DNA from: a phage
Length of the DNA stretch: 64,000 nt
Reading direction: 5' to 3' (one strand)
Sequence record: OZ335958.1
Shown here piece after piece: positions 32,672-41,811 of the stretch; the first letter of the stretch is position 1, and each line of letters opens with the position of its first letter. Made by a program: the position numbers and the translations under genes. Below the pieces are notes generated by a model, which did not search any database, had not been told where the DNA came from, and saw nothing but the letters and a program-made list of their open reading frames with translations.

Positions 32672-33145
32672 TTATTTGAATGATTTGACGTACTGAATAG
32701 AGCCTTTGCTATTCACGAAAGCGATTTTACCATTTTTGTTATACATGGTAGCAGTACGCTGATAGCCATAAGTTTGCTTACCAGATTGATAACCAACTAG
32801 TGCGAAATTATCTTCACCCATTTTATTCTGCTTAGCGCGGATACGTTCATGACCGTGCGCCATAAGAACCTTAGCATCACCAGTTGCAATGGATCTACGA
32901 GTTTTTTCATCTTCAACTGTATTAACAAAGTCGTCAAATGAATCAAATTTAGCATGAGATTTATTATACAGTTTTCCATCTACTGCATAATTATATCCCT
33001 GTACATCCATCTCAACTTCTGTACCATCATCTAATACAGCAGTGATTTTTTGACCTTTTTTAAATTTCAAAAGATCAGTAAAAGATTCAGCAATAATTTG
33101 AGAATTAATAGCTGCTTCAGTGATAAATTCTTGATATGTTTTCAT
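32672..33145 (-). CDS. Internal-protein-like protein with capsid-targeting leader
   Basis: 157 aa starting MKTYQEFITEAAINSQIIAES: T4 IP capsid-targeting sequence consensus with I-x-E prohead-protease sites. Confidence 0.6.
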   Translation of the reverse strand: MKTYQEFITEAAINSQIIAESFTDLLKFKKGQKITAVLDDGTEVEMDVQGYNYAVDGKLYNKSHAKFDSFDDFVNTVEDEKTRRSIATGDAKVLMAHGHERIRAKQNKMGEDNFALVGYQSGKQTYGYQRTATMYNKNGKIAFVNSKGSIQYVKSFK

Positions 33146-35445: not shown

Positions 35446-35840
35446 CGTGATTCCTTAACAAATTTCATAATTTCATCAAATTCATACATATCTAGCTTAA
35501 GCTGGTGTTCCTTTTTAATCTTTTTACACTGAGCTTTCCAATCACGTACACGTTTACGATAATGTCTTCCTTGATACCAGTATCCTACCCAATTTACAGG
35601 TACTAATAAAAGCGGAACTACCAATGGAAGAATTAGTGTTGCTCCAAATATTACACCAGATTCAATATCAGTCATAACGTCTATAACCATTCCAGCAATC
35701 ACCAAAATCACAAATGATACAGCTACCACAGGACCTATTAACACATCAGTAGAAATTAGCTGACGCTTTGGTTCATACTTCACAGGTTTACTTGGAAGGT
35801 ATAGTGATGGCTTTGACATATTCTCTACATTCCTTAACAA
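35427..35840 (-). CDS. Membrane protein
   Basis: 137 aa with two hydrophobic helices. Confidence 0.5.
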   Translation of the reverse strand: MLRNVENMSKPSLYLPSKPVKYEPKRQLISTDVLIGPVVAVSFVILVIAGMVIDVMTDIESGVIFGATLILPLVVPLLLVPVNWVGYWYQGRHYRKRVRDWKAQCKKIKKEHQLKLDMYEFDEIMKFVKESRCKSQN

Positions 35841-36402
35841 ATTTTTCTAATAATAAATCACTTTCAAAATTGGGATTTTCTACGAATTTATCAAAAAGAT
35901 CATCAACAATAGTTAAGATATTCTTTTTACTAAGAATACGCTTATTTTCATATTTTGTTTCAGAGTCAACTATAAGAGTAAAGAAATATTTCTTTCCCTG
36001 AAATTTTACCGTAGTATCAATATAAAATAAATTTGATTTTTGTAAATTACGTTTAAACCATGCATCACTTAAACTATAAACGCCAAGATAATCATAATCG
36101 TCGTTTAAATAACAAACCGTCCATTCAGGAGAAATGAAATCAGTAAATTCAACATCAAAATCACACGTCAATGAATGAATTGATTCAATACTGTTAATGA
36201 GTATTCCAGGACGTATTAAAGACTTTTTACCTCTAGAAAATCTTCCGGAAAGGCTTTCATCAGTTTCATATGAAGACCCCCAATAGTAATTACGTCCTTC
36301 TGCCATGCGTTTAAGAGCATTTAGTAATTGGTCTGGAACATCAACCTGTCTTTGGAACTCTTCAAACATTGAATTGAAATCACTTTGCATTTTCATTTTC
36401 AT
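35788..36402 (-). CDS. Hypothetical protein
   Basis: 204 aa ORF. Confidence 0.5.
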   Translation of the reverse strand: MKMKMQSDFNSMFEEFQRQVDVPDQLLNALKRMAEGRNYYWGSSYETDESLSGRFSRGKKSLIRPGILINSIESIHSLTCDFDVEFTDFISPEWTVCYLNDDYDYLGVYSLSDAWFKRNLQKSNLFYIDTTVKFQGKKYFFTLIVDSETKYENKRILSKKNILTIVDDLFDKFVENPNFESDLLLEKFVKECREYVKAITIPSK

Positions 36403-36443: not shown

Positions 36444-37037
36444 TTATTTCAGAGAATTAATGTATTCCTGAACATCGGCAGAGGTAGTTTCAACCCCAGA
36501 AATATTACCATTAAAGGTTTCAACTCGAGCAAGGGTATCTTCAATATCAACCTTAGTCAGTGCTGCAATTTCAACTACATCATCGGCAGTACTAATTCCA
36601 AGGGCATTTGCCGCACGAGTTTCACGGATATATTCCAATTTAACTGCAAGCTCTTGACGAGCATCATCTAACTCAACTACTTTCTTGGCGATTTCAATTC
36701 GCATTTCAGCATAACCGTCAGCCTTAGTAGTCAACTGCTCAGCTGTTCGACGATATAGTAAACCGAGTTTAGCATGCATTGTTACATCTTGGCCTTCGGA
36801 AAGAAGTTTACGAATTTCACGCTCTTTTGATTCGGCCTGTCGATTCTTTTCGATAACAAGTTCACGAATACGTTTTTCTTCGTTAATAGATTTAACAGAA
36901 GCAGTTTTTAGATCTTTAATTTTATCAAGTAGTTTTGCTGCTGCAGCAGTATACTGTTCTTCGACAGATAGATTTTTAGCCATAGCAGAACCAAGTTTAG
37001 TGCGAATAAACTCAACAATTTTCTTCAGTGTGTTCAT
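36444..37037 (-). CDS. Coiled-coil protein, PspA/IM30-like architecture (tentative)
   Basis: 197 aa, long charged helical repeats; family assignment not verified. Confidence 0.45.
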
Positions 37038-37470: not shown

Positions 37471-37612
37471 GATGTAAACCGTTTTGTGAAAAAATTTTTA
37501 AAAAGTTTTATGGAATTCTGGGGCAGGGAGGGGCAATTAAAAGGTAGGATAATATATTATAAAGGGTATAAACTAAATGATGCCTAGAGAGGCCCGGAAA
37601 GGCCTAGATACC

Positions 37613-37640
37613 AAAAAGCCCCAACCTTTTGGTCGGGGTT
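37613..37640 (-). terminator. Rho-independent terminator (minus strand)
   Basis: Minus RNA: CCCCGACC-AAAA-GGUUGGGG followed by CUUUUU; 8 nt after the stop of the IP-like gene. Confidence 0.55.
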
Positions 37641-37647
37641 AAGAATG

Positions 37648-38121
37648 TTATTTGATTTGTTTAGCAGACCAAATGCGGTCTTTAATAATTTTTTGAATGT
37701 CTTCAACATACTCAAGAGAGTGAACGTGTGGATTATCTTTGAAACTATAAGCACGGGCTAACTTTTGGCCTTCGGTTTTGATTACTAAAAGCTCTTTAAG
37801 GATAGCTTCATATTTAGCGATAATTCCTTTAACGATATTTTTTTCTTGTGCCGCTTTAGGATCTGCTTTAGGAGCAGGTTTACCCGAAGGCTTTGCAAAA
37901 GCAGCTCCAGTAGCAACTAAACTTTTCCAGGCCATACTAACTGCATTTCCCGTAAATCCTTCTGCTTTCATGTCGCGAGCAAATTGGAATCGTGATTCGT
38001 CAGAAGCATCTTTATAGGAATATTTACCCGCTGCAATGGCTGCTTTTGCGACAGCTTGAATTTCGGTGCTAGATGCTTCATTTAACACCGCTTCATTTAA
38101 AAATTGAGCATATGATTTCAT
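37648..38121 (-). CDS. Internal-protein-like protein with capsid-targeting leader
   Basis: 157 aa starting MKSYAQFLNEAVLNEA (IP leader with L-N-E cleavage motifs), Ala/Lys/Pro-rich centre. Confidence 0.55.
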   Translation of the reverse strand: MKSYAQFLNEAVLNEASSTEIQAVAKAAIAAGKYSYKDASDESRFQFARDMKAEGFTGNAVSMAWKSLVATGAAFAKPSGKPAPKADPKAAQEKNIVKGIIAKYEAILKELLVIKTEGQKLARAYSFKDNPHVHSLEYVEDIQKIIKDRIWSAKQIK

Positions 38122-38161
38122 CTTATTTCCTGTTTTAATTCGTGGATTTAATATACTACTA

Positions 38162-38169
38162 TATTTATA
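38162..38169 (-). promoter_or_regulatory. Late promoter (TATAAATA on minus strand)
   Basis: tatttata on plus strand ~40 bp upstream of 38121 start. Confidence 0.5.
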
Positions 38170-38171
38170 CT

Positions 38172-38199
38172 AAAAAGCCCCAACCTTTCGGTCGGGGCT
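38172..38199 (-). terminator. Rho-independent terminator closing the tRNA/stable-RNA operon
   Basis: Minus RNA: AGCCCCGACC-GAAA-GGUUGGGGCUUUUU; near-identical to the hairpin at 37613-37640. Confidence 0.55.
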
Positions 38200-38204
38200 A
38201 AGCC

Positions 38205-38500
38205 TTGCGGCAACCTTGTCGGGGTTCCACCTGCTAAGGCAAGTGTTTGTACGAAACGCCGGGATTCGAACCCGGTTATTAAGTAGTTGACGCTACTCAA
38301 TATTTTTAAAAGGCCATATCTCGACCATATCCGAACGTTCCGTCAAAAACGCTACTCGGCTTACGGCAAAGATATTTCCTCGAATCGATAATTCGGTGCG
38401 CCGTTTCAGCTGTGATAGTAAAGAACCAGAACACAGTAAAACTGTGGGAGGAACTATACTCCAGGGAACATCAGTCCGACGACTTACCGGTAACGACCCG
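38205..38500 (-). ncRNA. Putative small stable RNA(s) with tRNA-like T-arm (possible counterpart of T4 species 1/2 RNAs)
   Basis: No ORF; minus-strand ACCGGGUUCGAAUCCCGGCG T-arm-like element at ~38256-38279; bounded by the terminator. Confidence 0.25.
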
Positions 38501-38505
38501 GTTTC

Positions 38506-38856
38506 TTAATATTCTTTTAAAGTATCAATCTGTTCACGACGTTTACGCCATAAATCAATTGCTTCATACGCAGATTCAGCATTTCTAATTAGTCGGCATT
38601 TGTGTAAAGACTTATGATTTTGATATTGTGTAGATAACGGAATTTTATCTAAAAGGTCTTTACGTTCAAAGTATTCATAACCATCTAAGCCAAATGAACG
38701 ATTTTTAAGAAATTGCCAATGACCGTATTCGTTTTCGACATAAACATAATCTGCGTGCTGATAAAGCAAATTAATTACACGTTCAGAAATAACAGTGTCA
38801 TTATGATTAAAATAGAATGTTAAATCATGAACTACTAAATAAACATTACCTTTCAT
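38506..38856 (-). CDS. Hypothetical protein encoded within the tRNA region
   Basis: 116 aa ORF with GAGGAAAAU Shine-Dalgarno directly after tRNA-Arg. Confidence 0.55.
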   Translation of the reverse strand: MKGNVYLVVHDLTFYFNHNDTVISERVINLLYQHADYVYVENEYGHWQFLKNRSFGLDGYEYFERKDLLDKIPLSTQYQNHKSLHKCRLIRNAESAYEAIDLWRKRREQIDTLKEY

Positions 38857-40598: not shown

Positions 40599-40997
40599 TC
40601 AGCCTTCATCAACAATAGTGTGAGTATTGGCATTTACGATTTGCCACCAATCAAAGCGATTAGAATCCATCGGTTTGTTTTCATTTTCTTTGATAATGTC
40701 ACGGAGTTCATCTTCAGAGAATGCTTTAGCAATTAAATCGGTATACCCACCACGGGGATAATAATTATCACCTGCAAACAAAAGGAAATTTACCTTCCCG
40801 GAAGGAACATATGCTTCCTTAGGATACTTGTTTCCTGCGTGGTCAACCACTTCAATATAACGGTAAGGAATATCGGTTCTTTCAACCCATTGCCATGCCG
40901 CTGCAGGGGAATCGAAAGCATCTACACCTAAACGATTATCTTCATCTTTAGACGGATTATTTTCGTAATCCGCATATACATAATATTCAACGTTCAT
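40599..40997 (-). CDS. Hypothetical protein
   Basis: 132 aa ORF. Confidence 0.5.
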   Translation of the reverse strand: MNVEYYVYADYENNPSKDEDNRLGVDAFDSPAAAWQWVERTDIPYRYIEVVDHAGNKYPKEAYVPSGKVNFLLFAGDNYYPRGGYTDLIAKAFSEDELRDIIKENENKPMDSNRFDWWQIVNANTHTIVDEG

Positions 40998-41240: not shown

Positions 41241-41474
41241 TTATTTTTTACGAAAAATTGATTTATTTTCTGCTGCCCATTTTTCAATAACTGCAGCAGG
41301 ACCAGTAACAACAATTTTATCACCGTAATCTTCTGCGGCGAGTTGACCGAAATTATCTAATGCATCACGAAGAACTCCATGAGGCATTTCACCCATTTTA
41401 TCTTTCTTGCCGGTGTAAATAAACTCAACTTTTACATCAGAAGATTCAGCGATAAATTCTTGATAAGTTTTCAT
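41241..41474 (-). CDS. Internal protein (IPI-locus type) with capsid-targeting leader
   Basis: 78 aa from MKTYQEFIAESSDVK..., exact T4 IP leader MKTYQEFIAE. Confidence 0.65.
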   Translation of the reverse strand: MKTYQEFIAESSDVKVEFIYTGKKDKMGEMPHGVLRDALDNFGQLAAEDYGDKIVVTGPAAVIEKWAAENKSIFRKK

Positions 41475-41553: not shown

Positions 41554-41811
41554 TTATTTTAAATCTTCTAATCGTTTCTTCATCTTAGAACCATTTTTAG
41601 CAATTTCTCCTGCATCGGAGCATAATGCTAAAAGTGCTTTAACTTTCGTTTGGTCTCCTTTAAAAGATGAAGGATCTACTGCAGCAGCAAGTTCTTTAAT
41701 ACGAGAGAAAAGACGCTCAGCTTCAGCTAAAGCCATTCCAAGCTTTACTTCCATACCGTGGGAAGATTCAGTGATAGTAGTTTTTGCAGCAAACTCTTTG
41801 AAAGTTTTCAT
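41554..41811 (-). CDS. Internal-protein-like small protein with IP-type leader
   Basis: 85 aa starting MKTFKEFAAKTTITES (leader variant with I-T-E site). Confidence 0.55.
   Translation of the reverse strand: MKTFKEFAAKTTITESSHGMEVKLGMALAEAERLFSRIKELAAAVDPSSFKGDQTKVKALLALCSDAGEIAKNGSKMKKRLEDLK

Follow-up and report, generated by a model that had tools for sequence, protein, structure and literature searches.

A candidate injected internal-protein gene between repeated terminators in the rnaC/e.8 slot of T4-like phages

Internal proteins of T4-like phages enter the cell with the phage DNA, ahead of any phage gene expression, and are therefore the phage's first answer to restriction. T4 IPII and IPIII were formerly regarded as basic filler proteins. 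Only four internal proteins (Ips) have assigned targets, and in all four cases the target is a type IV restriction enzyme: IPI, Ip2 and Ip3 inhibit GmrSD enzymes, a distinct one each (PMC12373910), and the leader-bearing protein Bas37_0260 was reported in 2025 as an inhibitor of McrBC (bioRxiv 10.1101/2025.11.20.689424). Here we analyse a small cassette in 64,000 nucleotides of phage DNA (sequence record OZ335958.1; this whole stretch is called the window). The cassette lies between the stable-RNA gene rnaC and the early gene e.8 and consists of one open reading frame (ORF), ORF A or gene A, flanked by repeated hairpins. An original prediction, made by a model from the letters of the window, had taken it for a discrete internal-protein-like cassette. 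On balance, we favour the view that the cassette is a monocistronic late unit of Tequatrovirus encoding a packaged and injected internal protein, probably a host-specific counter-defence factor.

Gene A, its leader and its transcription unit

The predicted ORF of 157 amino acids (aa) is present, on the minus strand, which had been left unstated (Table 1). Mutational work on IPIII mapped capsid targeting mainly to residues 4 and 7 and processing to residues 8 and 10 (review PMC9026906), and the first ten residues of ORF A, MKSYAQFLNE, retain all four of these determinants (Y4, F7, L8 and E10). The motif L-N-E/A (the slash marks cleavage) occurs twice in the leader, as L8-N9-E10/A11 and L13-N14-E15/A16, and provides two predicted sites for the prohead protease gp21; in close relatives such as RB27 and APCEc01 the cleavage site is single. 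The original prediction of a T4 capsid-targeting leader with L/I-x-E sites is thus borne out. For comparison, T4 IPII and IPIII start MKTYQEFIAE/A and IPI starts MKTFKEFTSTTTPVSTITE/A. When the window was translated in six frames, the pattern MK[TS][YF]..F[IL].E was found three times compared with 0.001 expected, each time at the start of an ORF; the other two matches belong to an Ip4-like ORF (32672-33145) and a 77-aa ORF (41241-41474). Family members with as little as 24% identity also retain the leader (MLKFNEFLAE, MINFSDFLNE and MKSFSSFLNE), and the pattern xx[FY]xxF[LV]xE persists in members that are 24–30% identical overall. Judged by its sequence, ORF A is quite likely to be a packaged internal protein.

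The flanks of ORF A have the build of a separate transcription unit. Two copies of a 36-nt direct repeat, 33/36 identical (92%) and 559 nt apart, lie on both sides of the gene, and each copy forms one of the two near-identical terminator hairpins that had been foreseen. On the gene strand, each hairpin is a G+C-rich stem-loop directly before a U-run, as in intrinsic (Rho-independent) terminators, with a folding energy well beyond that of shuffled controls. The hairpin motif occurs twice in the 64 kb, both times here, compared with 0.00 expected. By position, the upstream hairpin is the predicted end of the tRNA/rnaC unit and would shield the cassette from early transcription, and the downstream hairpin is the predicted end of the cassette transcript ahead of the e.8 early promoter. 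A late promoter of its own, also part of the original prediction, is represented by the consensus motif TATAAATA, located 40 nt before the ATG. Enrichment of TATAAATA was rejected as window-wide evidence, as 13 copies were found and 10.8 expected; it carries weight through its position and because the hairpin / T-run / TATAAATA junction, GGGGCTTTTT(A/G)GTATAAATA, is conserved in RB27 and in the Klebsiella Jiaodavirus KpV477, with the ATG again ~40 nt away, despite differences in stem sequence. Across the promoter and the gene start, the minus strand reads ...AGCCCCGACCgaaaGGTTGGGGCTttttagTATAAATAtag...AGGAAAtaagATG. Early read-through transcripts of T4 gene e have their ribosome-binding site hidden in a hairpin; the same was considered for early read-through transcripts of ORF A, and no such hairpin is seen over its ribosome-binding site in the sequence.

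Beyond the leader, ORF A resembles no described family. The predicted mature protein has a mass of ~15.5–16 kDa and an isoelectric point (pI) of 9.5. Its body had been called Ala/Lys/Pro-rich, which holds for alanine (27 residues in ORF A) and lysine (21), whereas proline is concentrated in the linker KPSGKPAPKADPK. The architecture of the family is constant, with a leader, a helical N-domain, a disordered Ala/Lys/Pro-rich linker, found in every member, and a helical C-domain, of which there are two or more unrelated versions. AlphaFold models (predicted local distance difference test (pLDDT) scores of 74 and 78) have a low-confidence leader, an N-domain of three to four helices, a flexible linker and a long helical hairpin, and structure searches with these models returned only generic coiled coils or non-significant matches. 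Sequence-profile searches of ORF A against Pfam, NCBIfam and PDB gave no match, and PHROGS places it in phrog_2280, 'unknown function'. In a profile comparison with T4 IPI, IPII, IPIII and the protein of cassette B, a neighbour of gene A in some other phages (see below), only the first ~10 residues, that is, the leader, could be aligned, in agreement with the earlier impression of a body unlike IPI, IPII or IPIII. Likewise, ORF A had no Pfam match to PF11634, the IPI_T4 nuclease-inhibitor family, and the hhalign probability was 0.2%; T4 IPI itself scored 7e-54.

An exhaustive profile search of 1.8 billion proteins recovered no distant homologue with a functional clue. The family comprises 14 clusters at 90% identity and 13 representatives at 50% identity, and all traceable members are from T4-like phages. 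The ratio of nonsynonymous to synonymous substitution (dN/dS) of gene A is 0.08–0.14 relative to the RB32, RB27 and Mosigvirus orthologues, and gene A is therefore a real gene under purifying selection. The suggestion that it might be novel holds in part: it belongs to no described family, but tblastn finds the gene in 512 phage records, where it is a 'hypothetical protein', and the repeat is already noted in the RB32 record.

Table 1. Positions of the cassette features and of the adjoining stable RNA in the window
Feature	Position	Strand	Basis or remark
rnaC-like stable RNA (species 1)	38250..38388	(-)	near-identical, by eye, to annotated T4 rnaC
Upstream copy of 36-nt direct repeat	38167..38202		92% identical to downstream copy (family D1)
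Upstream intrinsic-terminator hairpin	38176..38199	(-)	10-bp stem, GAAA loop, then TTTTT at 38175-38171; -20.3 kcal/mol, z -4.2
T4 late-promoter consensus TATAAATA	38162..38169	(-)	abuts upstream T-run; 40 nt upstream of ATG
Shine-Dalgarno AGGAAA	38126..38131	(-)	read from sequence
ORF A, internal-protein-like precursor	37648..38121	(-)	157 aa, 17.2 kDa, pI 9.5; begins MKSYAQFLNEAVLNEA...
Propeptide / capsid-targeting leader MKSYAQFLNE/AVLNE/A	38077..38121	(-)	two predicted gp21 cleavage sites, after E10 and after E15
Two exact 11-nt copies, 15 nt apart	38075..38100		GCTTCATTTAA on + strand; encode doubled L-N-E-A motif (family D6)
Conserved helical N-domain, residues 17-77	37891..38073	(-)	AGKYSYKD...SRFQF...AWKS motifs; alignments; AF2 pLDDT 80-90
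Disordered basic Ala/Lys/Pro linker, residues ~75-87	37861..37899	(-)	AF2 pLDDT ~53-55 over 81-90; no secondary structure 76-87
C-terminal antiparallel helical hairpin, residues 88-154	37660..37860	(-)	different C-domain in Klebsiella and Yersinia relatives
Downstream copy of 36-nt direct repeat	37608..37643		repeat search
Downstream intrinsic-terminator hairpin	37619..37638	(-)	8-bp stem, AAAA loop, then C + TTTTT (T-run 37617-37613); -15.1 kcal/mol, z -3.3

The rnaC/e.8 slot and its repeated terminators

The 1-kb region around the cassette is 97–98% identical to many Tequatrovirus genomes, for example those of Shigella phages sb2 and pSs-1 and Escherichia phage ECp13. In T4, the rnaC–e.8 interval contains exactly one hairpin and no ORF, and reads ...ccgcaacggttAGCCCCGACCgaaaGGTTGGGGCTttttggtatctaagcc...; the 5' side of this hairpin corresponds to the upstream copy of the window (GAAA loop) and its 3' tail to the downstream copy (TTTTTGGTATCT). 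The slot of T2 and T6 likewise contains one hairpin and no gene. Gene A stands alone in this window, RB32, RB27, fD1, Bas40 and Bas43, and together with cassette B in pSs-1, ECML-134, Bas37 and fPS-65 (where A is frameshifted). Cassette B alone is present in vB_EcoM_WL-3, in which the rnaC hairpin is joined directly to the sequence upstream of B. The junctions of the slot states all lie at the hairpin/T-run. Cassette B encodes a 187-aa protein that starts MKTYAEFLTE/A, and it has its own terminator hairpin, unrelated to the repeats of A. Gene B was found in 165 phage records, next to the 512 with gene A, and 731 records match the 1-kb query over some or all of its length. As T4, T2 and T6 are empty and other phages have A, B or both, the rnaC/e.8 slot is a modular, putative internal-protein locus that is missing from the classical T-even phages. 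The original prediction had suggested cassette exchange at the flanking repeats and a comparison of this slot across T-even phages, and the idea of a cassette came through that comparison well.

The slot is also occupied outside Tequatrovirus. The Mosigvirus APCEc01 has an orthologue of gene A in the same slot, bracketed by hairpins that differ in the sequence of their stems. In KpV477, the hairpin in this slot is a different one, but the TTTTTAG-TATAAATA junction after it is the same, and 42 nt further on comes the ATG of a protein that starts MKFKEFLAE/A. A protein of the Yersinia T4-like phage fHe-Yen9-01 has its N-domain in common with ORF A. The unit of terminator, late-promoter motif, leader-bearing ORF and terminator is thus old and conserved. 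Because Mosigvirus and Jiaodavirus have A-family genes in this very position and the N-domain recurs in fHe-Yen9-01, gene A was probably ancestral and then deleted in the lineages of T4, T2 and T6; a recent mobile insertion, which we also considered, is less likely on the same evidence. Members of the gene A family are apparently inactivated in some phages, by an in-frame TAA in the linker in KpV477 and by the frameshift in fPS-65; such disruptions would suit an accessory gene that can be dispensed with, or they may reflect errors in sequencing.

In the RB32 GenBank record, the orthologue of gene A is annotated as 'flanked by 34 bp imperfect direct repeat'. We propose that the repeated terminator hairpins may serve as joints for the loss and gain of units, with homologous recombination in the conserved flanks shifting slot states between co-infecting phages; gene A would then probably have been lost from the T4, T2 and T6 lineages through recombination between its flanking repeats. 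Possibly, although we find it doubtful, the hairpins are terminators only, with no role in rearrangement, and all slot variation stems from homologous recombination in the long conserved flanks. The flanks (rnaC and the e.8 promoter region) are 95–98% identical between phages with different slot contents, which is ample for T4 recombination, and cassette B ends in an unrelated hairpin. However, the empty T4 site is exactly one hairpin that combines the 5' side of the upstream copy with the 3' tail of the downstream copy, and the B-only state joins the rnaC hairpin to the upstream sequence of B. Both are products expected from recombination between repeats; moreover, repeat-mediated and flank-mediated mechanisms are not mutually exclusive. 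We prefer a role for the repeats in rearrangement, and the four-state slot offers a clean natural case of genes gained and lost as whole units at repeated terminators.

Proposed packaging and function of the gene A protein

In the model that we favour, early and middle transcription of the tRNA-rnaD-rnaC cluster would stop at the upstream hairpin and its U-run. The late promoter TATAAATA directly past this terminator would drive ORF A, which comes next, and the second copy of the hairpin would end the unit before the early gene e.8. By the rules of T4 internal proteins, ORF A would be made late, the decapeptide MKSYAQFLNE would direct the precursor to the prohead scaffolding core, and gp21 would cut after E10 and/or E15. 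The mature protein, basic and of ~15.5–16 kDa, would be kept in the head with the DNA and injected with it. In the host, by analogy, it would neutralize an immunity factor specific to that host, with a modification-dependent (type IV) restriction enzyme as the most probable candidate.

Published data on orthologues bear on several of these steps. In Yersinia phage fD1, g140 is 96.8% identical to ORF A and was listed as particle-associated in liquid chromatography–tandem mass spectrometry of the purified phage at the strict threshold, as were the other two Ip-like proteins of this phage, g129 and g146 (PMC8309999 Table S3). The paper on fPS-65 is without proteomics. In phage Bas37 (KarlGJung, MZ501089), bas37_0244 is identical to ORF A at 155/157 residues and was covered by the HIDEN-SEQ transposon screen (bioRxiv 10.1101/2025.11.20.689424). 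In that screen, 29/34 TA sites of bas37_0244 were hit and the gene was scored 'Non-essential'; gene A is also absent from T4, T2 and T6, and it is thus dispensable on laboratory hosts, as are the T4 internal proteins. According to the same HIDEN-SEQ tables, the ipI-locus gene bas37_0260 behaves as an McrBC inhibitor. Neither the ORF A protein nor cassette B is part of the accessory-gene screen of Silas et al. 2025. A type IV restriction target is considered for ORF A because all four characterized leader-bearing internal proteins (IPI, Ip2, Ip3 and Bas37_0260) inhibit type IV restriction. By analogy with these proteins, the chances that ORF A is a counter-defence effector appear about even, and the more specific assignment as a type IV restriction inhibitor is tentative.

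Several observations weigh against an injected counter-defence protein. The fD1 virion list is unspecific, with 113/277 gene products including DenV, endolysin and NudE (PMC8309999), and therefore the detection of g140 raises the odds of packaging only modestly. Disruption of bas37_0244 caused no change in fitness when K-12 was compared with five uropathogenic isolates (adjusted p = 1; log2 fold change (log2FC) of -0.11 in CFT073, -0.30 in CFE299, -0.14 in CFE303, 0.00 in CFE331 and +0.39 in CFE336; bioRxiv 10.1101/2025.11.20.689424). The late promoter is a match to a motif that is not enriched in the window, and the predicted fold is uninformative in structure searches. A dN/dS of ~0.1 and an N-domain conserved across genera are as compatible with a conserved housekeeping or structural role as with an arms race, and a basic protein rich in A/K/P would make a suitable DNA-associated filler. 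Finally, cleavage, injection and target of ORF A are carried over from other internal proteins by inference or analogy.

Part of this evidence is captured by the main rival explanation, in which ORF A is packaged via its leader but has a structural role as a basic DNA-associated protein (charge neutralization, genome organization or ejection aid), with no specific host target. This would suit a mature protein with a pI of 9.5 and a lysine/proline/alanine linker in every family member, a dN/dS of ~0.1 in a gene family conserved across Tevenvirinae genera, and the lack of a conditional phenotype of the Bas37 orthologue in six hosts. However, T4, T2 and T6 lack gene A and Bas37 can dispense with it, which makes a general structural need unlikely. 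Phages that are 95–98% identical in the flanking DNA differ in whether they have gene A, a patchiness that is the signature of accessory counter-defence genes, and IPII and IPIII had the same standing until their GmrSD targets became known. We regard a structural role as unlikely overall. A cytoplasmic late protein with an N-terminus that only resembles a capsid-targeting sequence, and with contamination as the source of the fD1 signal, is very improbable: although many non-structural proteins are in the fD1 list and the leader departs from MKTYQEFIAE, the four experimentally important positions are all conserved, the leader is among the most conserved parts of a family diverged to 24% identity, the leader pattern has a chance expectation of ~0.001 per window, and cassette B and relatives have still more canonical leaders (MKTYAEFLTE and MKTYNEFLNE).

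A packaged and injected internal protein therefore remains our preferred reading of gene A. We also advance a wider, speculative proposal: the rnaC/e.8 slot might be a third internal-protein locus of T-even phages, overlooked because it is missing from T2, T4 and T6. The proteins of A and B might be injected effectors against immunity systems without a matched phage inhibitor, with an exchangeable C-domain of gene A that sets target specificity and an N-domain and linker common to several Tevenvirinae genera. Genes A and B are leader-bearing candidates in hundreds of therapeutic and environmental T4-like isolates, and their absence from the three classical laboratory T-even phages may explain the label 'hypothetical protein' in every record inspected. 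Recognizing both as probable injected proteins gives a short and concrete list for anti-defence screens, improves the annotation of phage-therapy genomes and adds further natural capsid-targeting leaders, including one with a doubled cleavage site, for protein-delivery engineering.

Neighbouring genes and comparison with known systems

On the minus strand, the order of genes is a ten-tRNA cluster (39700 to 38873), a 116-aa ORF, rnaD, rnaC, the cassette and homologues of e.8, e.6 and e.5. The tRNA/rnaD/rnaC transcription unit, which lies upstream of the cassette, has the gene for the rnaC-like RNA at its end. Both rnaD and rnaC were assigned by near-identity to the annotated T4 sequence; an Rfam search gave no match in the cassette or over rnaC/rnaD, and Rfam has no family for rnaC. 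The 116-aa ORF (38506-38856, minus strand; phrog_3355, function unknown) lies between tRNA-Arg and rnaD. An ORF of the same length is found at this position in T2 and several Bas phages and none in T4 and T6, which makes it a further presence/absence difference in the tRNA region. A predicted 94-aa protein from a metagenome contig combines an N-terminal part like the window ORF at 40599-40997 with the last ~30 residues of gene A (cf. 37648-37730); it arose either by natural recombination across the tRNA region or as a chimera of the assembly. Just downstream of the cassette, the homologues of e.6 (36444-37037, minus strand) and e.5 (35788-36402, minus strand) are 100% identical to Bas37_0240 and 99% identical to Bas37_0239, respectively. 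In the HIDEN-SEQ supplementary tables, uropathogenic E. coli CFT073 is the only host with strong depletion of these two Bas37 genes (log2FC of -6.49 and -3.62, respectively; adjusted p of 0 for both), an effect that is not taken up in the main text of the preprint and that suggests an uncharacterized host-specific function.

Three further ORFs of the window, all on the minus strand, bear leaders. The 77-aa ORF (41241-41474) has the leader MKTYQEFIAE, is 97% identical to Bas37_0260 and is flanked by a direct repeat of the promoter-like sequence GTGATACTATTACCCTATCAA (~41530-41500 and 41222-41200). An Ip5 homologue (41554-41811) has a long leader of the IPI type, MKTFKEFAAKTTITE/S. The third, a 157-aa ORF (32672-33145; Pfam DUF7412), is Ip4-like by Pfam family, leader and position, and has TATAAATA 34 nt upstream. 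Together with ORF A, the phage thus has at least four internal-protein-type genes at three loci. Cassette B, as Bas37_0243, was hit at 1/48 TA sites in the Bas37 transposon library and scored 'Essential', although the gene is absent from many relatives. Hoc and a few other genes are as depleted as Bas37_0243 in this library, and Hoc is dispensable in T4. The depletion of Bas37_0243 might be an artefact of the technique or reflect toxicity of truncated B.

T4 IPI (IPI*), IPII and IPIII are alike with ORF A in their N-terminal capsid-targeting propeptide that ends in an L/I-x-E gp21 site, in a late promoter (for ORF A, the motif) on the 'early' strand, and in being small and non-essential, with bodies that are mutually unrelated. 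IPII and IPIII are basic, as is ORF A. In contrast to these proteins, ORF A has nothing similar past the leader and no match to PF11634, differs in leader residues S3, A5, Q6, L8 and N9, and has a doubled cleavage site. It is also encoded at a third locus, rnaC/e.8, which is empty in T4, whereas the T4 proteins are established as injected inhibitors of distinct GmrSD enzymes (PMC12373910). Bas37_0260 resembles ORF A in that only the N-terminal signal is common with IPI–III and in its origin from a non-classical Tequatrovirus. However, it is another protein at another locus, and bas37_0244 had no conditional phenotype in the same experiments. Cassette B (pSs-1 gp150 / Bas37_0243) shares with gene A the slot, a terminator hairpin of its own and a canonical leader, but it is not in the window, its body is unrelated, its upstream motif is AATAAATA, and it was scored 'Essential' in the Bas37 library.

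Polymorphic leader-bearing ip genes of T-even phages (Ip4–Ip13) have reportedly been known since Repoila et al. 1994 (EMBO J 13:4181). Like gene A, such genes (for example, Ip5/Ip7/Ip9 of RB32) are exchangeable short ORFs with only the leader in common, and their units are bounded by short direct repeats, Ip7 and Ip9 being 'flanked by 43 bp direct repeat' in the RB32 record. Unlike gene A, they are located at the ipI locus (tRNA.4 / 57B) or the ipII/III locus and have names, whereas all records inspected, that of RB32 included, leave gene A without a name, as a 'hypothetical protein'. Polymorphic ip cassettes with a leader and with short repeats on both sides are therefore an established concept, and ORF A, by its sequence-level properties, passes as a T4-type internal protein outside IPI_T4 and every other described protein family. 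As far as we could determine, what is new is the recognition of the gene A family and its neighbour B as probable internal proteins, the third locus, which is empty in the classical T-even phages, and the two-domain build of gene A across several genera.

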